NCBI GenBank assembly: GCA_947495795.1
Contig: CANMAI010000013.1
Coordinates: forward strand, 48,157 to 112,156
DNA length: 64,000 nucleotides
Direction: 5' to 3'
Source: an uncultured Rhodobacteraceae bacterium
GTDB lineage: Bacteria > Pseudomonadota > Alphaproteobacteria > Rhodobacterales > Rhodobacteraceae
The notes beneath the pieces are model-generated. The model was not told where the DNA came from and searched no databases. It was given only the letters and a program-made list of their open reading frames with translations. Shown here one piece after another: positions 21,363 through 30,178 of this stretch. Every line of letters begins with the position of its first letter. Position 1 is the first letter of the stretch. Both the position numbers and the translations under genes were made by a program.

Positions 21363-22019
21363 TTAGCCTGGTTGCTTTGTCTTGCGGAGATAGGGGAGGA
21401 CCTTATCGAAGTCGCCAAACTTCTCCTTGGCTTCTTCGTCGGAAACCGCTGCTGTGATAATGACATCATCGCCATCCTGCCAATTGGCGGGGGTGGCAAC
21501 CTTGTGTTCAGCTGTCATCTGTATGCTGTCTATAGCCCGGAGGATCTCATCGAAATTCCGGCCTGTTGTCATGGGATAGGTGAGCGAGAGTTTCACCTTC
21601 TTGTCGGGGCCGATAACGAAGACGGAACGCACCGTCTGGTTGTCTGCCGGCGTGCGGTTGGCGGGATCGCCGGAGGCTTCTGCAGGAAGCATGTCGTAGA
21701 GCTTTGCAACCTTCATATCCGGATCGCCAATCATCGGGTAATCTACTGAATTACCGGAATATTTCTGGATATCGGACTTCCACTTCATATGATCTTCAAC
21801 AGGGTCTACCGAGATGCCGAGGATCTTGGTATTGCGCTTGGTAAACTCGCCTTCCATGCCTGCCATAACACCCAGTTCCGTTGTGCAGACGGGTGTGAAA
21901 TCCTTGGGGTGGGAAAAGAGGACGGCGTAGCCATCGCCGACCCACTCGTGGAAGGAAATTTCGCCTGCTGTGGTGTCGGCTGTGAAGTCTGGTGCGGTGT
22001 CGTTGATGCGCAAGGCCAT
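21363..22019 (-). CDS. peroxiredoxin (1-Cys/Prx6-type)
   Basis: DFTPVCTTE peroxidatic-Cys motif. 218 aa. Confidence 0.85.
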   Translation of the reverse strand: MALRINDTAPDFTADTTAGEISFHEWVGDGYAVLFSHPKDFTPVCTTELGVMAGMEGEFTKRNTKILGISVDPVEDHMKWKSDIQKYSGNSVDYPMIGDPDMKVAKLYDMLPAEASGDPANRTPADNQTVRSVFVIGPDKKVKLSLTYPMTTGRNFDEILRAIDSIQMTAEHKVATPANWQDGDDVIITAAVSDEEAKEKFGDFDKVLPYLRKTKQPG

Positions 22020-22116: not shown

Positions 22117-22707
22117 ATGCCGGGGCGTGTTTTCATAGATGCTGGGTTGGATCTTGGTGGGATTGCGGCTGATCCGAGTGTTCCAGAAGCGCGGGTTGAT
22201 GCAGCACCTGGAGAAGAATTTCTTGTTTTATCAGAGGCTTCGCCTGGTATTTTAACGTTGATGCGCTGGGGTATGGTGATGTCTGGCCGCCGGAATGCGC
22301 GGGGCCGGCCTGTGATGGAGACGATTGTGAATGCGCGATCCGAGACCGTTTTTGAGAAATCCGCTTTTGAAGGCGTGAAGCGGGCGGTTCTGCCCGTTTC
22401 CGGCTGGTATGAATGGACGGGCAAACGTGGGCGCAAGCAACGGTGGCGGATCACAGTGCCCGGTGCGCAAGCCCTTCTTTTTGCAGCGATTTACGATGTC
22501 TGGAAGGGGCCGGGCGGCGTGGAGGTGGCGCAGTTCGCGACGCTGACGGTGGAGCCGAATGACGATGTGCGGGAGATCCACCACCGGATGCTGGCACTGC
22601 TTGGGGCGGATGATGTGCCGCGCTGGCTGAGTGGTGGGGCGGGCGCCGATTTGTTGGTGCCTGCCGAGAATGGATTGGTACAGATCGACGCAGTGAGAGA
22701 GCCCTGA
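22117..22707 (+). CDS. SOS-response-associated peptidase (SRAP/YedK/HMCES family) paralog 1, with Pro in place of catalytic Cys2
   Basis: SRAP motifs RWGMV, NARSETV, RAVLPVSGWYEW and IHHRM are present. N-terminus reads MPGRVFIDAG, so position 2 is Pro (codon ccg) rather than the canonical MCGR Cys. Confidence 0.65.
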   Translation: MPGRVFIDAGLDLGGIAADPSVPEARVDAAPGEEFLVLSEASPGILTLMRWGMVMSGRRNARGRPVMETIVNARSETVFEKSAFEGVKRAVLPVSGWYEWTGKRGRKQRWRITVPGAQALLFAAIYDVWKGPGGVEVAQFATLTVEPNDDVREIHHRMLALLGADDVPRWLSGGAGADLLVPAENGLVQIDAVREP

Positions 22708-22818
22708 AACGGGCGCTGGATTTGGTATGGTTTTGATACCGGTTCGGTAGTGCAACCTGTTCTTAAGACAGGCAGGTGCACACTTCCCCTTTTTCAGCAA
22801 TTTTTTAGGGGAATTTTA

Positions 22819-23148
22819 ATGGTTGCGAAGCGGACAAAGGTTGAGGAGAAGGCGCATTCCGAGCTGCTGGTGGAACTGGCGGAGATGGATTTGTGGATGC
22901 AGCAGTTCCGGCTGAAGGAGGGGTACATTCCGGAAGCCTGGGCGGAGATGGAAGACCGCGCCCCGGTGAATGAACCGAAGACGAAGGTTACGATCTCTTT
23001 GGATACGAAAGTGCTGCGCTGGTTCAAGGCGATGGGGCGGGGCTATCAGGCGCGGGTGAATGCGGTGCTGCGCACGTATATGCTCTCGATCCTCTGCAAG
23101 GAGGTCAAGGGGCAGAAGGATGTCGACTGGAAGGGAGAGCCTCTCTGA
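22819..23148 (+). CDS. BrnA-like / DUF4415-type ribbon-helix-helix protein (orphan antitoxin-like)
   Basis: C-terminal motif KTKVTISLDTKVLRWFKAMGRGYQARVNAVLRTYM matches the BrnA/DUF4415 signature (K..vt.RlD.dvl.wfk..G.GYQtriNavLR). Start taken at the internal Met MVAKRTKVEE. No BrnT-like gene is adjacent. Confidence 0.45.
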   Translation: MVAKRTKVEEKAHSELLVELAEMDLWMQQFRLKEGYIPEAWAEMEDRAPVNEPKTKVTISLDTKVLRWFKAMGRGYQARVNAVLRTYMLSILCKEVKGQKDVDWKGEPL

Positions 23149-23242: not shown

Positions 23243-23452
23243 TCAGTCGTCCAGTGCGAGATTTCCTGCGGACTGGCGGCCATCACGACCGGCTTCGAGG
23301 TCGAATGTGACCTTCTGGTTGTCGTCCAGGCCGGAAAGACCTGCGCGCTCTACAGCAGAGATGTGTACGAACACGTCTTTGCCGCCATCATCGGGCTGGA
23401 TGAAGCCGAAGCCCTTAGTTGCGTTGAACCATTTCACTGTGCCCTTGGCCAT
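23243..23452 (-). CDS. cspA: cold-shock protein
   Basis: [34 protein letters not shown] contains the RNP1 and RNP2 motifs of CspA-family proteins. 69 aa. Confidence 0.9.
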
Positions 23453-23918: not shown

Positions 23919-24623
23919 TTATTGCTCGTTTGTGGAGAGTTCGCCACTCTCGCCCGCCAGCACAACCTCACCCGTGGGAGAGAGCGCTGTGGTGGGCCAG
24001 CGGGCACCCAGAAGGCGATTGCGGGCGATGCGGGTGACGTTGACCTGATCGGACTGATTGCCGCCAAGAACGTGATAGGCCCCCTGATCTTCGCCGTGGT
24101 AAAAGCCCACATGGCCCTGCCATCCCGATCTGCGATGCCGCCAGAAAACGAGAACGGAGCCACGTTGCGGTGTGCATTCCGTGCCGAATTTGAGCCAGTT
24201 GCGCGCGCCGAGAAGACCGTTGGGCAGCGCCTCACCCGGCAGCATGGAGCCCACGCAATGGCCGACGAAGAGGCCGCACCACGGCACATCATCGCCCGCG
24301 TAATCGATATCGAGATCCTTCGCCATATCCATCAACAGCGGGTTATCACCCGGGCCCGGCGTTTCCTTCGTGCCGATCAGGCGCACGGCTTCCTCGAACC
24401 ACGGCATCGCATCGAAGGACATGGCCTCGCCGGGTGCAGGCTCTCCGAACAGCGCCTTGAAGGTTTGCGGGCCGACGATACCATCGACCAATAATCCGCG
24501 CGCCTCCTGAAACCGTTTGACCGCGTTGATAGTATTGCGTCCGCGGATGCCATCTATCGGGCCGGGGTTGAACCCGTTTTTCTGCAGGCGGATTTGAATG
24601 GATTTCCAGTTTAGAGAACTCAT
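23919..24623 (-). CDS. peptidoglycan-binding domain protein with C-terminal TIGR02594/NlpC-P60-like hydrolase domain (phage-type cell-wall hydrolase)
   Basis: N-terminal PG_binding_1 motif (IDGIRGRNTINAVKRFQEARGLLVDGIVGPQT). C-terminal domain resembles the TIGR02594 family seen in prophage and GTA lysis modules. Confidence 0.6.
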   Translation of the reverse strand: MSSLNWKSIQIRLQKNGFNPGPIDGIRGRNTINAVKRFQEARGLLVDGIVGPQTFKALFGEPAPGEAMSFDAMPWFEEAVRLIGTKETPGPGDNPLLMDMAKDLDIDYAGDDVPWCGLFVGHCVGSMLPGEALPNGLLGARNWLKFGTECTPQRGSVLVFWRHRRSGWQGHVGFYHGEDQGAYHVLGGNQSDQVNVTRIARNRLLGARWPTTALSPTGEVVLAGESGELSTNEQ

Positions 24624-24767
24624 ACTTACCTCCTAATGTAATGGGCGGAGGGTAGCATTGTATTCGTGCTCGCTGAACTTGGGGCTGGGGGCAAGTGTGG
24701 CGAACCTCTCAATTTGAGGCAAAGTGTTGGGGTTGCGGGCAGGTGCCTGATTGCGGAGAGTGCGGCC

Positions 24768-25376
24768 ATGCCCGGACGTTTTGCCCTGACTGCGCCGATT
24801 GGAGAGGTTGCCAAATGGATGGCCTCTGACGGAGCGGCTGTTGAGCGCGAGGGACAGCGATGGAACATAGCACCTTCACAGGAGGTGGTGGTTGCCATGC
24901 CGGGGCGGCGGCTGGAGCGGCTGCGCTGGGGGATGGAGCCGCCCGGGCGGCCGGGGCAGAAAAAGCTGGCCCCCGTGATCAATGCGCGGAGCGAAACGGT
25001 GGCGGAGAAGCCCATGTTTCGCGAGGCCGCACGGATGCGGCGATGCCTTGTGCCCGCGACGGCCTGGTATGAGTGGACACCGGATCGGGATGGCAAACGG
25101 GCGTGGCGTGTGCAGTCTGTTCAGGGGCTGATGGCCTTTGCCGGGATTTATGAGAACGGCTTTTTCGTGACGCTGACTTGTGAGCCCAATGAGCTGATGC
25201 GCAAGTATCACCACCGGATGCCGGTGATCATCTCGCCGGAGAAGTTTGGGCTGTGGCTTGGCGAGGAAGGCAAGGGTGCTGCGCGGCTGATGGTGCCTGC
25301 GCCGGAGGATTTGCTGGTGGTAGGACCCGTTTCGGACCGGATCAACTCCGCCCGGTTCGAAGGCCCCTTGGAGTGA
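24768..25376 (+). CDS. SRAP/YedK-family protein paralog 2, with Pro in place of catalytic Cys2
   Basis: Starts MPGRFALTAPIGEVAKWM (canonical YedK: MCGRFA...). Other motifs conserved: RWGMEPP, NARSETVAEKPMFREA, RRCLVPATAWYEW, YHHRMPVII. Start taken at ATG 24768 inside the track ORF 24666-25376. Confidence 0.75.
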   Translation: MPGRFALTAPIGEVAKWMASDGAAVEREGQRWNIAPSQEVVVAMPGRRLERLRWGMEPPGRPGQKKLAPVINARSETVAEKPMFREAARMRRCLVPATAWYEWTPDRDGKRAWRVQSVQGLMAFAGIYENGFFVTLTCEPNELMRKYHHRMPVIISPEKFGLWLGEEGKGAARLMVPAPEDLLVVGPVSDRINSARFEGPLE

Positions 25377-25440
25377 GATCGGCGGAGGTTCGCGGCTTTG
25401 GATCTCCTCTCTTTTCTCAGCGTTTTGAGCGGGCTATCAT

Positions 25441-26166
25441 GTGCGGATGATAGTGCGATCCTTATGTCTTCTTGTGCTGCTCGCCGGGTGCGAAGTGGTT
25501 CCCGTAACGTCCACAGGCCCGGCGCCTGCGCCGACTGCTGCGGAGGTGACGCGCTCTTCCAAGGCGGCGACCAATTCCTTCCGCCGGAGTGTGCGCCGGA
25601 TTGAGCCGATTGCCGAGCGCAGATGTCGTGCGAAGAACCCTGATTTTCGGGCGCGATCCTGCGATTTCCGGTTTGCGATCAGCAATGACCCGAAGCTGGG
25701 GCGGAACGCGTTCCAATCCATCGGACGGGACGGGCGGCCGCAGGTGACGTTCACGCTGGCGTTGTTGCGGGTGATGCGCAACGACGATGAGGTGGCGTTT
25801 GTGCTGGCGCATGAGGCGGGGCACCAGATCTCGCGGCATCTGCAGAAGGCTTCGGCACAGCAGCAACTGGGTGCGGCACTTCTGGGCGGGTTGCTGGCGG
25901 CCTCGGGTAATGCGAGTGAGCAATCGGTGCGGCAGGCGGCGGGGCTTGGCGCATTTCTCGGTCGGAGGGCCTATTCGAAGAAATTCGAGTTCGAGGCGGA
26001 CCGGCAGGCCGTGTTTATCTCGATGGAGGCGGGCTACGATCCGCTTAAAGGGGCGCAGCCGTTCACGCGGGTGGAAACAGGCACGCGGCAGTTTCTCGGC
26101 ACGCATCCGCCATCGTCGGACAGGCTCCGGCGGATCCAGCGGGCGATCGCTGAAGCGCGCCGTTGA
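25441..26166 (+). CDS. M48-family zinc metalloprotease lipoprotein
   Basis: HEAGH zinc-binding motif. Lipobox LLAGC after the signal peptide MRMIVRSLCLLVLLAGC. Confidence 0.75.
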   Translation: MRMIVRSLCLLVLLAGCEVVPVTSTGPAPAPTAAEVTRSSKAATNSFRRSVRRIEPIAERRCRAKNPDFRARSCDFRFAISNDPKLGRNAFQSIGRDGRPQVTFTLALLRVMRNDDEVAFVLAHEAGHQISRHLQKASAQQQLGAALLGGLLAASGNASEQSVRQAAGLGAFLGRRAYSKKFEFEADRQAVFISMEAGYDPLKGAQPFTRVETGTRQFLGTHPPSSDRLRRIQRAIAEARR

Positions 26167-27091: not shown

Positions 27092-27146
27092 TGGTGGGTT
27101 AGCACCCACCCTACAGGCAGCGCGTAGGGTGGGTGTTAACCCACCG
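27092..27146. repeat. REP-like nested hairpins immediately upstream of the RAYT gene
   Basis: cacccaccctac (27104-27115) pairs with gtagggtgggtg (27125-27136) as a perfect 12-bp inverted repeat. Additional ggtgggt/acccacc arms flank it. Confidence 0.6.
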
Positions 27147-27173
27147 TTTACCAAGGCCCGTCACGTTGCGCCC

Positions 27174-27662
27174 ATGTCGAATTACCGTCGCGCCAGGGCT
27201 GCCGGAGCCACCTATTTCTTCACCGTTGCATTGCAGGAGCGTGGCTCCGCGCTTTTGGTGGATCGGATTGACGATCTTCGCGCGGCTTTTTTGAAGGCTA
27301 CCGCGGATGCGCCCGTTCAGGTCGATGCAATGGTGGTTTTGCCTGATCATCTGCATGCTGTGTGGACTTTGCCGCCTGGGGATCGGGATTTCTCGGGCCG
27401 TTGGCAACGTTTGAAGGAGAGTTTCACAAAGTCCACAGGGTTGGAGCGGCCAAGGAGTTATTCAAAACGGGCCAAAGGTGAAAAGGGTGTTTGGCAGCGG
27501 CGGTTTTGGGAGCATCTGGTGCGGGATGAGGCGGATTTCGCGGCGCATGTGGAGTATTGTTGGATCAATCCGGTGAAACATGGGCTGGTGCGCAGTGTGG
27601 CCGATTGGCTGTATTCATCCTTTCAACGGGATGTTCGGAGAGGGATGGTTGCGGCAGATTAG
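27174..27662 (+). CDS. REP-associated tyrosine transposase (RAYT, IS200/IS605 TnpA-like)
   Basis: HuH motif LPDHLHAVW and the conserved Tyr region (WQRRFWEHLVRDEADF) are present. Adjacent REP hairpins. Confidence 0.75.
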   Translation: MSNYRRARAAGATYFFTVALQERGSALLVDRIDDLRAAFLKATADAPVQVDAMVVLPDHLHAVWTLPPGDRDFSGRWQRLKESFTKSTGLERPRSYSKRAKGEKGVWQRRFWEHLVRDEADFAAHVEYCWINPVKHGLVRSVADWLYSSFQRDVRRGMVAAD

Positions 27663-27829
27663 GCCGGACACGCTGAAGACTTTGAGACGATTGGGGAGTG
27701 AGGCAGACGTTTGGAGCAGTGGGTTTCACCCAGCTTACCGATTTACTGCACAGCTTAAGTCCATCCGTCTGGACATTTTTCTCAAAAAGTGTATGCGCAA
27801 TAATGAGTTCGATTTAAGGGAGAGTTACG

Positions 27830-28507
27830 ATGTCATATTACGAAAGAATTGCTAGAGAAGTTAAGAATGCTAAAGACTATTTTCTCAATTGGCCAGCAAA
27901 TGAACCAGTAAAGCTTGGGGACTACGGCTTTTACAATGGTAGAAGGGTGTCATTTGATTGGCAGGGGAATCTCTCGAGCTTCGGTGTGAATCTCGCTCCA
28001 CTTTCTGAAAACCTTCCTATGTCTCAGTCAACACGGAGTGGCGGTTCTGTGGATGTTAAATTTGATTTGCGTAGTTCGACGCCAGCCTCGGCTAGGCTTG
28101 CATTTCGCAAGAAGCATTGCGTTTCGTTTGAATCTCATGGCGGAGTGATTGAAAAGGTTGAAATGGATTTGTTGTTTAAAGCAATTCTGGAACGCATCGG
28201 TATTGGGGAACTCACTTGGAACCCACACTGGGTAGTAGTGACTCAAATCTATAAAGTTGATTCATTTTCCTCGTTTGTCTCGGGTTCGAAAAGTGCGGGT
28301 GCAGAGGTTGTTGCTTCGACGTGCGCACGAACGACACCATTTTCATTGGCAGATCCTTCTGGTGGCCTTAGCATAGGTAATCAATGCCAGATGGCGCACT
28401 GTTCAGTAGCAGAGAGAGGCGCACTACCTTTTTTTGTCATCGGCAAGGTGAAAGGCGAAAAGGACGGGTCCTTGCGAATGGAACGGTACGGCCTGGGCGA
28501 GCGATAG
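27830..28507 (+). CDS. hypothetical protein (225 aa) in a strongly low-GC insert
   Basis: ORF MSYYERIAREVKNAKDYFLNWPANEPVKLGDYGFYNGRRV... with AT-rich codon usage (about 45% GC by eye, against a genome that looks above 60%). No recognisable motif, signal peptide or TM segment. Confidence 0.45.
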   Translation: MSYYERIAREVKNAKDYFLNWPANEPVKLGDYGFYNGRRVSFDWQGNLSSFGVNLAPLSENLPMSQSTRSGGSVDVKFDLRSSTPASARLAFRKKHCVSFESHGGVIEKVEMDLLFKAILERIGIGELTWNPHWVVVTQIYKVDSFSSFVSGSKSAGAEVVASTCARTTPFSLADPSGGLSIGNQCQMAHCSVAERGALPFFVIGKVKGEKDGSLRMERYGLGER

Positions 28508-28522
28508 TTGAGTTGTCTTAAA

Positions 28523-30178
28523 CTATCTCGCGAATTTCTTATACTTGATCCGCTTTGGCTCCACCGCATCCGGCCCCAAGCGCCGGATCTTGTCGGCCTC
28601 GTAGTCCTCGAAATTGCCCTCGAACCATTCCACATGGGCTTCGCCTTCGAAGGCCAGGATGTGGGTGCAGAGGCGGTCGAGGAAGAAGCGGTCGTGGCTG
28701 ATGATGACGGCGCAGCCTGCGAAATCGGCGATGGCGTCTTCGAGGGCGCGGAGGGTTTCGACGTCGAGATCGTTGGTAGGTTCATCCAATAGCAATACGT
28801 TGCCGCCTGCGCGGAGCAGTTTGGCCATGTGCACGCGGTTGCGTTCGCCGCCCGAGAGGAGGCCGATTTTCTTTTGCTGGTCGCCGCCCTTGAAGTTGAA
28901 GGCGGAGACGTAGGCGCGAGAGTTGATCTCGGCGTCGCCGAGTTTGATGATATCCAGCCCGTCCGAGATTTCCTCCCAGACGTTCTTGTCTCCATCCAGC
29001 GCATCCCGGCTTTGATCCACGTAGCTCAGCTCTACCGTGTCGCCGAACTCGATTGTGCCGCCGTCGGGCTGCTCCTGCCCGGTGAGCATGCGGAAGAGGG
29101 TGGATTTGCCTGCTCCGTTGGCTCCGATGACGCCGACGATGCCGCCTGGCGGCAAGGCGAAGGTGAGGCCGTCGATGAGGAGTTTGTCTCCGTAGCCCTT
29201 TTGCAGGTTTTCGACCTCGATGACTTTGGCACCGAGGCGCGGACCGTTGGGGATGACGATCTGGGCGCGCCCGACCTTTTCGCGCTCGGATTGCTCGGCG
29301 AGGTCGTTATAGGCGTTGATGCGGGCCTTCTGCTTGGTCTGGCGGGCTTTCGCGCCTGCGCGAATCCATTCCAGTTCGCGTTCAAGGGTTTTCTGGCGGG
29401 TCTTGTCTTCGCGGGCTTCGTGGGAAAGGCGTTTGGCCTTTTGCTCCAGCCAGGCGGAATAGTTGCCCTCGTAGGGGATACCGCGGCCGCGGTCGAGTTC
29501 CAGGATCCAGCCGGTGATATCATCGAGGAAGTAGCGATCGTGCGTGACGATCAGGATGGTGCCCTTGTACTCGATCAGGTGCTTTTGCAGCCAGGCGATG
29601 GTTTCTGCATCGAGGTGGTTCGTGGGCTCGTCGAGGAGGAGCATATCTGGTGCTTCAAGCAGGAGCTTGCAGAGGGCGACGCGGCGCTTTTCGCCGCCCG
29701 AGAGGGTGGAAACCTCGGCTTCATCGGGCGGGCAGCGGAGGGCTTCCAGCGCGATGTCGATCTGGCTGTCGAGATCCCAGAGGTTCTGCGCATCGATCTG
29801 GTCCTGCAGGGCGGCCATCTCGTCGGCTGTCTCATCGGAGTAATTCATGGCGAGTTCGTTGTAACGAGCCATGAGGTCGCGTTTCTCGGCGACACCTTCC
29901 ATGACATTCTCGCGGACGTTCTTGCTCTCATCAAGCTGGGGTTCCTGCGGAAGGTAGCCGACGCGGGCACCTTCGGCGGCCCAGGCTTCGCCCGTGAACT
30001 CCGTATCCATGCCCGCCATGATGCGCATGAGGGTGGATTTGCCCGCGCCATTGACGCCGACAACGCCGATTTTCACGCCGGGGAGGAAGTTGAGGCGGAT
30101 GTTCTCAAAGCATTTCTTGCCGCCGGGATAGGTTTTGGAGACACCATCCATGAAGTAGACGAATTTGTTGTCGGCCAT
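28523..30178 (-). CDS. ettA: energy-dependent translational throttle protein EttA (ABC-F)
   Basis: Two ABC cassettes with Walker A motifs GVVGVNGAGKST and GVIGANGAGKST, signature LSGGEKRRV/LSGGERNRV, and an ABC-F arm between them. 551 aa. Confidence 0.9.
   Translation of the reverse strand: MADNKFVYFMDGVSKTYPGGKKCFENIRLNFLPGVKIGVVGVNGAGKSTLMRIMAGMDTEFTGEAWAAEGARVGYLPQEPQLDESKNVRENVMEGVAEKRDLMARYNELAMNYSDETADEMAALQDQIDAQNLWDLDSQIDIALEALRCPPDEAEVSTLSGGEKRRVALCKLLLEAPDMLLLDEPTNHLDAETIAWLQKHLIEYKGTILIVTHDRYFLDDITGWILELDRGRGIPYEGNYSAWLEQKAKRLSHEAREDKTRQKTLERELEWIRAGAKARQTKQKARINAYNDLAEQSEREKVGRAQIVIPNGPRLGAKVIEVENLQKGYGDKLLIDGLTFALPPGGIVGVIGANGAGKSTLFRMLTGQEQPDGGTIEFGDTVELSYVDQSRDALDGDKNVWEEISDGLDIIKLGDAEINSRAYVSAFNFKGGDQQKKIGLLSGGERNRVHMAKLLRAGGNVLLLDEPTNDLDVETLRALEDAIADFAGCAVIISHDRFFLDRLCTHILAFEGEAHVEWFEGNFEDYEADKIRRLGPDAVEPKRIKYKKFAR

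Follow-up and report, generated by a model that had tools for sequence, protein, structure and literature searches.

Proteins of the SRAP family carry a cysteine which the founding paper describes as 'absolutely conserved, always the second amino acid' (PMC3765255), and in the SRAP/HMCES field the thiazolidine-based shielding of abasic (AP) sites in single-stranded DNA (ssDNA) by this Cys2 is taken as the only known activity of the family. A stretch of 64,000 nucleotides from an uncultured Rhodobacteraceae bacterium (contig CANMAI010000013.1 of assembly GCA_947495795.1; the whole stretch is referred to as the window) raises the question of what such a protein does when this residue is proline. 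The window contains a SRAP-fold open reading frame (ORF) of 202 amino acids at 24768..25376 on the plus strand (gene A, SRAP-A; stop codon 25374..25376), the product of which starts with MPGR. Gene A is a real, conserved and previously undescribed variant of the SRAP family. Sequence evidence and analogy with characterized proteins point, with a probability of roughly 50 %, to an enzyme that attacks abasic sites through an iminium at its N-terminal proline and that is most probably an AP lyase. The following features of gene A bear on this assignment (residues are related to those of Escherichia coli YedK):

24755..24760, plus strand: Shine-Dalgarno-like sequence GGAGAG, 7 nt before the ATG, read from the sequence
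24768..24770, plus strand: start codon ATG, followed by CCC GGA CGT
24771..24773, plus strand: codon 2, CCC for Pro, replacing the Cys2 nucleophile of the family, read from the sequence (CCA and CCG in homologues)
24933..24977, plus strand: equivalent of loop45 (residues 56-70), MEPPGRPGQKKLAPV, rich in Pro, Gly and Arg/Lys and without the Trp wedge, as compared with W67/W68 of YedK
24981..24983, plus strand: codon of Asn72 (Asn75 of YedK) in INARSET, unchanged throughout alignments A1-A4 and every Pro2 clade
25071..25073, plus strand: codon of Glu102 (Glu105 of YedK) in WYEW, assigned by conservation
25209..25211, plus strand: codon of His148 (His160 of YedK) in YHHRMP, assigned by conservation

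A preliminary description of this locus had reported Pro in place of Cys at codon 2 (MPGR for MCGR). This is borne out by the ATG CCC of gene A, by the corresponding CCA and CCG of its homologues and by the Pfam profile SRAP (PF02586), the sole Pfam match of protein A, which aligns over residues 1-194 with positions 1-213 of 214 (E=3.6e-45). Since the alignment begins at profile position 1, MPGR takes the exact place of the family's MCGR. The reading frame is open for 42 codons 5' of the ATG, and a GTG at 24666 would add 34 amino acids. An upstream start bringing a Cys to the mature N-terminus, which the same description had considered, finds no support here: the 34-residue extension is unconserved in the closest homologue (P0002, encoded on contig L002) and puts no Cys at the mature N-terminus. 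At the P0002 locus, GGGAGGGAGAG is located just 5' of the ATG, separated from it by a 3-nt spacer (ttt). After removal of Met, which Pro at the P1' position permits, the mature N-terminus of protein A is expected to be Pro, not Cys.

The structure of protein A was modelled with AlphaFold2 on a 56-sequence alignment, yielding a predicted local distance difference test score (pLDDT) of 94 (91 for residues 1-10) and a predicted template modelling score (pTM) of 0.90. Searching with this model in Foldseek returned YedK structures as best PDB matches (6kbz, 6nua and 8d2m; template modelling (TM) scores of 0.82-0.84), followed by HMCES (TM about 0.8), and every significant structural match was a SRAP protein. 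According to the model, protein A keeps the YedK/SRAP fold. Conservation extends to the active site: the acid-base residues N72/E102/H148 (N75/E105/H160 of YedK) are invariant in all alignments, as are the equivalents of the phosphate anchor, R74/T137/R150 (R77/T149/R162 of YedK), and all six residues remain invariant across the Pro2 clades described below. The motifs NARSETV and YHHRMPVII, which the preliminary description had listed as intact SRAP motifs, are indeed present; its placement of the catalytic Glu in NARSETV has to be corrected, as this residue is E102 in WYEW and the NARSET motif carries N72 and R74.

Subfamily A is rare. Only two close relatives of protein A were detected among 5.8 billion clustered proteins, namely P0002 (70 % identity, start ATG CCA) and P0007 (57 % identity), the latter being called too short, with its true start GTG CCG at L001:1179. 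No further A-type members were obtained from metagenomes scanned with an alignment of A sequences only (identities of at most 42 %; 78/78 parsed loci with Cys2), from a genome scan or from a viral scan (48/48 viral SRAPs with Cys2). The N-termini of the A relatives read M/V-PGR, and codon 2 encodes Pro in 3/3 A genes (CCC, CCA, CCG); TGC or TGT, the Cys codons which the preliminary description had named as the observation to look for in homologues, occurs in neither close relative. All three genes keep the catalytic residues, and their pairwise ratios of nonsynonymous to synonymous substitutions (dN/dS) amount to 0.21-0.34, with dS near saturation. Retention of Pro2 across synonymous codon changes, the low dN/dS and the invariant catalytic residues together argue, in agreement with the preliminary description, that gene A is not a dead copy; these data indicate an intact gene under purifying selection.

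A second SRAP gene with Pro2 is located about 2 kb upstream of gene A:

22117..22707, plus strand: gene B (SRAP-B), 196 amino acids, start ATG CCG, N-terminus MPGR, detected by tblastn (37 % identity to A; Pfam E=6.5e-32)

The preliminary description, in which gene A is called 'paralog 2', left unmentioned that the other SRAP gene has a Pro2 (MPGR) of its own. An in-frame stop 3 codons 5' of its ATG leaves gene B no earlier start. Among the 120 best B homologues, 110 start with MPGR and the remaining ten are truncated or mis-started calls. The source genome's own call for gene B (P0131, 148 amino acids from MRWG) appears to miss the Pro2 N-terminus, and Algicella marina P0133 (174 amino acids, 75 % identical) looks mis-started in like manner. 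The B clade comprises at least 119 Rhodobacterales proteins, 100 % of which have Pro2. On the DNA level, codon 2 encodes Pro in 42/42 B-type genomic loci (CCG 20, CCC 10, CCT 10, CCA 2) from Ruegeria, Shimia, Maritimibacter, Silicimonas, Boseongicola, Seohaeicola, Sedimentitalea, Sulfitobacter and others, the start codons being ATG, GTG or TTG, and is TGC or TGT in 21/21 canonical Rhodobacterales loci. In the metagenome-assembled genome (MAG) CAZRUV01, a B-type Pro2 gene exists alongside a canonical Cys2 SRAP (L019, L061).

Gene B resides within a conserved housekeeping block (MBL-gltX-MATE ... B ... csp ... EttA), in which its direct neighbours vary (e.g. SGNH hydrolase or ABC transporter genes); in other genomes, A is missing from this block. 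On the metagenomic contig L001 (553..1790), a Pro2 SRAP gene of type B is followed in tandem by one of type A, and the GTG start of the A gene overlaps the TAG stop of the B gene (TAGTG). This overlap suggests translational coupling of A and B in L001 and a joint function of the paralogs. In the window, both paralogs of this Pro2 lineage share one syntenic block.

With gene B at hand, the possibility that Pro2 of gene A reflects a sequencing error at codon 2, a wrong start or a decaying duplicate can be judged. The upstream open frame with its GTG and the scarcity of subfamily A are what such an explanation could draw on. It is opposed by the presence of Pro in each of three independent A genes and in over 100 B genes, with all four codons in use among them, by a Shine-Dalgarno-like sequence in front of the ATG of A and an unconserved upstream extension, by the in-frame stop preceding gene B, and by the low dN/dS and the Pfam alignment from the first profile position. 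Artefact or decay of gene A is effectively refuted.

The distribution of Pro2 within the family was investigated with a neighbour-joining (NJ) tree of 355 SRAPs, from which the residue-2 column was left out. Bootstrap values were 100 for B (119 sequences), 69 for A (3 sequences) and 60 for A+B; the last value fell to 50 once the columns of the pocket and of loop45 had also been dropped. Canonical Rhodobacterales Cys2 proteins formed the sister group of A+B with weak support. Monophyly of A+B is a point estimate of the NJ tree and not settled. A separate clade C is formed by proteins of Planctomycetota (P0260 and P0399-P0405; also L057 10001..10690), 8/8 of which start with MPGRL[IV]QDP and the next relative of which has MCGR at 46 % identity. 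Judged from these sequences, clade C is a Pro2 origin independent of Rhodobacterales A/B. The tabulation of residue 2 proposed in the preliminary description hence does yield clades of Pro2 SRAPs. In addition, P0010/P0130 (ATG CCT; L213 3001..3666), found in two independent datasets, have a Pro2 nested in a canonical Cys2 subfamily of Rhodobacterales and show no pocket or loop changes; they may represent a recent switch from Cys to Pro.

At the Cys2 position of the profile hidden Markov model, 517 proteins displayed C (346), P (140) or a gap due to truncated calls (31), and no other residue; this sample consists of the best 120-150 proteins per search out of ~18,600 representative SRAPs and is biased towards relatives of the queries. 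A change from TGY to CCN takes two substitutions, via Ser or Arg. Since neither single-step replacement was seen, Pro would appear to have been specifically selected, as far as the biased sample permits. Selection has maintained Pro2 in no fewer than two independent clades.

Residue 2 is not the only altered position. The pocket accommodating the thiazolidine ring in YedK is formed by W103, I147, T149 and P164 (Wang et al., PMC6821365). A comparison of Cys2 proteins (n=329) with A (n=3), B (n=119) and C (n=8) gave the following columns:

YedK P164: Cys2, P 328; A, P 3; B, G 82, P 21, A 16, L 1; C, G 8
YedK I147: Cys2, I, V, L or M; A, T, T, V; B, T 111; C, V 8
YedK W103: Cys2, F 308, Y 14, W 7; A, W 3; B, W 119; C, W 8

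In the P164 column, B and C arrived at Gly by convergence. At the I147 position, gene A of the window has Thr. The Trp of WYEW in the W103 column was considered as a signature of Pro2 and lost weight, as its association with Pro2 is complete among near relatives only: Trp also occupies this column in 40/78 metagenomic Cys2 loci and in YedK itself, and being common in other Cys2 subfamilies it is no general Pro2 signature. In loop45, at least one Trp is found in 92 % of the Cys2 relatives, in 0/3 A, in 0/119 B and in 7/8 C proteins, and the loop of A contains no aromatic residue at all. In YedK, the exchange W67A or W68A abolishes ssDNA binding (PMC6821365). Gene A consequently differs by C2P, by loss of the Trp wedge and by I147 to Thr, with the equivalent of P164 being kept, and the earlier statement that only the N-terminal nucleophile is changed does not hold.

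Two further Cys positions were noticed in these alignments. In clade C, a Cys directly follows the Gly at the P164 position (HHRMGC). Another Cys follows the conserved Thr (TC motif; A150 column of YedK, residue C138 of A) in 2/3 A, 99/119 B (83 %) and 8/8 C proteins. This Cys next to T137, enriched in the Pro2 clades, was set aside as a candidate thiol acting in trans; it is also present in 16 % of the Cys2 proteins and is missing from the A protein of L001 (L001_A) and from gene B of the window (WIN_B).

The modified loop invites the assumption that the fold was retained for another substrate, with Pro acting on a different electrophile (3'-PUA/5'-dRP ends, RNA abasic sites, formyl bases or AP-derived interstrand cross-links) or on duplex or gapped DNA. 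In A and B the ssDNA wedge of loop45 is replaced by a loop rich in Pro, Gly and Arg, YedK is able to react with 3'-PUA ends (PMC9436759), and the phosphate anchor is kept, so that a phosphodiester-linked sugar would still be the likely ligand. For no particular alternative substrate is there positive evidence, however, and clade C retains the Trp wedge (7/8), so the loop change is uncoupled from Pro2 in general; a change of substrate is accordingly regarded as quite improbable.

The pattern of conservation also bears on the view that Pro2 SRAPs have lost covalent chemistry and serve as ssDNA- or AP-site-binding or regulatory proteins, e.g. as decoy, sensor or partner of a Cys2 paralog. The family-defining nucleophile is missing, and the presence of both a Cys2 and a B-type Pro2 SRAP in at least one MAG (L019, L061) fits sub- or neofunctionalisation of a duplicate. 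Random inactivation, however, should give Ser, Arg, Tyr, Gly, Phe or Trp at residue 2, and only Pro was seen, with at least two independent origins. Moreover, Glu, His and Asn are invariant in about 130 Pro2 sequences, although YedK E105A binds ssDNA ~18-fold tighter than the wild type (Kd 0.12 vs 2.2 uM; PMC6821365). A pure binder would have no need of this Glu, and the invariance of the three residues therefore argues against a mere binding protein, as does the convergent change of the P164 column to Gly in B and C. Loss of catalysis is for these reasons held to be improbable.

The chemistry proposed for protein A rests on what is known of YedK, which forms its cross-link via a Schiff base at the alpha-amine of Cys2, with Glu105 as catalyst and His160 aiding ring opening (PMC9436759). 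Its mutants C2A and C2S no longer make the stable cross-link; their N-terminal amine gives a Schiff base that borohydride can trap, and they cleave AP-DNA (PMC9436759). In protein A, the secondary amine of Pro would attack C1' of the ring-opened abasic site to yield an iminium ion, with E102 and H148 catalysing as their counterparts in YedK do. As residue 2 provides no thiol, the stable thiazolidine cross-link could not close, and this activity would be excluded for residue 2 on chemical grounds. Beta-elimination would then resolve the iminium, in the manner of YedK C2A/C2S and of the Fpg/Nei glycosylases, making protein A an AP lyase and not an AP-site shield. The pyrrolidine ring, similar in shape to the thiazolidine ring, should fit the same pocket, which would explain P164G and I147T as compensating changes, and the lost Trp wedge suggests that DNA is held in another conformation or context than in YedK. 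The interpretation offered in the preliminary description, a possibly lyase-type AP-site-processing enzyme, is partly supported, and the lyase idea is plausible given its direct precedent in YedK C2A/C2S.

The same N-terminal amine could instead form a carbinolamine, iminium or enamine adduct, or Pro2 could act as a non-covalent cap, in either case protecting AP sites for a time while leaving the strand intact, like a YedK/HMCES shield that releases itself. Active site and phosphate anchor are the same and conserved, the five-membered pyrrolidine is close enough to the thiazolidine in shape that it would occupy the same pocket, and the cross-links of HMCES and YedK are themselves reversible via the Schiff base (PMC9436759). 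A reversible adduct would also sidestep the toxicity of a lyase acting on ssDNA. Yet the iminium of a secondary amine favours beta-elimination, as in Fpg/Nei, YedK C2A cleaves DNA while halting at the Schiff base (PMC9436759), and neither A nor B has the wedge loop that YedK requires to bind ssDNA tightly. Such a reversible shield is considered unlikely.

Several points weigh against the assignment of protein A as an iminium-forming AP lyase. Lyase, reversible adduct and non-covalent binding are indistinguishable by sequence, and an AP lyase acting on ssDNA at replication forks is expected to be harmful. Without a wedge of the W67/W68 type, A might, by analogy with YedK, bind ssDNA weakly or not at all. 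Remodelling of the pocket in A is modest, being confined to I147 to Thr with Pro kept at the P164 position, and the subfamily consists of three sequences. The genomic context likewise provides no link to DNA damage: no DNA-repair genes were found among the neighbours of A or B, which are housekeeping genes instead, PADLOC returned no defence matches for A, B or their neighbours, and the alphaproteobacterial LexA box GTTC-N7-GTTC was not found near A or B. This box was also absent upstream of the 42 B-type and 21 canonical Rhodobacterales loci, and SOS regulation of A and B was rejected on the absence of LexA boxes at the loci searched. An association with SOS gave the family its name without being a defining property of it.

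The surroundings of the two SRAP genes in the window are composed as follows:

21363..22019, minus strand: peroxiredoxin
22816..23148, plus strand: ORF of the BrnA antitoxin family, directly downstream of gene B (Pfam E=7e-15)
23243..23452, minus strand: cold-shock protein
23919..24623, minus strand: protein with a PG-binding and a weak CHAP-like domain, divergent from gene A
25384..25407, plus strand: terminator-like hairpin right after the stop of gene A (25384..25417 with the T-run), from a consensus scan only
25441..26166, plus strand: M48 lipoprotein peptidase with a lipoprotein signal (LLAGC)
27129..27662, plus strand: REP-associated tyrosine transposase (RAYT; NCBIfam E=5.7e-53)
28523..30178, minus strand: EttA

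The gene for the PG-binding/CHAP-like protein is missing between the cold-shock gene and SRAP-A in contig L002 and may represent an insertion. The hairpin between gene A and the M48 gene suggests that A is transcribed separately. The M48 peptidase was considered as a partner of A in the proteolysis of DNA-protein cross-links and rejected in view of its nature as a lipoprotein (LAGC lipobox) and of the terminator-like hairpin in between; it is probably unrelated to DNA metabolism. The RAYT gene is adjoined by a stretch of low GC content (27600..28600; 0.46-0.49 vs a background of about 0.60), within which an ORF at 27830..28507 has no family match.

No account of Pro2, C2P or N-terminal-proline SRAPs came to light in full-text searches of the literature. 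The proteins are automatically annotated as 'SOS response-associated peptidase / abasic site processing protein', like ordinary homologues of YedK, a label that probably mis-states their activity. Taken beyond gene A, the data allow the tentative proposal, possible but doubtful, that Pro2 SRAPs constitute an unrecognised class of abasic-site enzymes which arose convergently at least twice (Rhodobacterales, Planctomycetota) by replacement of Cys with an Fpg-like Pro and reshaping of the pocket, so that a shield became an AP lyase or processing enzyme working through an iminium and operating beside a Cys2 paralog, with A and B acting as a pair. Selectively maintained Pro2 clades would mean that the SRAP scaffold has been re-used for a different chemistry, and the second-shell positions P164, I147 and loop45 of YedK are pointed to as tuning the balance between cross-link and cleavage.

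Among known systems, SRAP proteins such as E. coli YedK (6NUA, 6KBZ) and HMCES are closest to protein A, sharing the fold, the single-domain size, an N-terminus located at the active site, the Asn/Glu/His active site, the Arg/Thr/Arg anchor and Gly3-Arg4. Protein A differs from them by Pro2, by the absence of a Trp wedge in loop45 and by Thr at the equivalent of I147, and the otherwise invariant P164 is Gly in clade C and in most of the sister clade B. All members of A, B and C have Pro2 and thereby depart from the Cys2 by which the family was defined. The closest mechanistic model is provided by the YedK mutants C2A/C2S (8D2M), which likewise have an N-terminal amine and no thiol at residue 2; these are engineered primary amines with slow lyase activity, whereas A would present a natural secondary amine together with compensating changes of pocket and loop.

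In the Fpg/Nei glycosylases, removal of Met bares an N-terminal Pro, whose nucleophilic attack on C1' of the lesion gives an iminium and leads to beta/delta-elimination. Protein A shares the N-terminal Pro, as predicted from its MPGR sequence. Fpg/Nei proteins, in contrast, possess H2TH and zinc finger domains, act on duplex DNA and excise bases as well, and the beta-barrel-like SRAP fold is unrelated to theirs; A is outside the Fpg/Nei family, and the resemblance is convergent, without homology. Members of the tautomerase superfamily (4-oxalocrotonate tautomerase, MIF) also employ the amine of an N-terminal Pro, either as catalytic base or as nucleophile forming an iminium or enamine, within an unrelated beta-alpha-beta fold and on small-molecule substrates instead of DNA. 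Against this background, Pro2 SRAPs would be natural counterparts of the C2A/C2S lyase mutants and a convergent parallel to Fpg/Nei.

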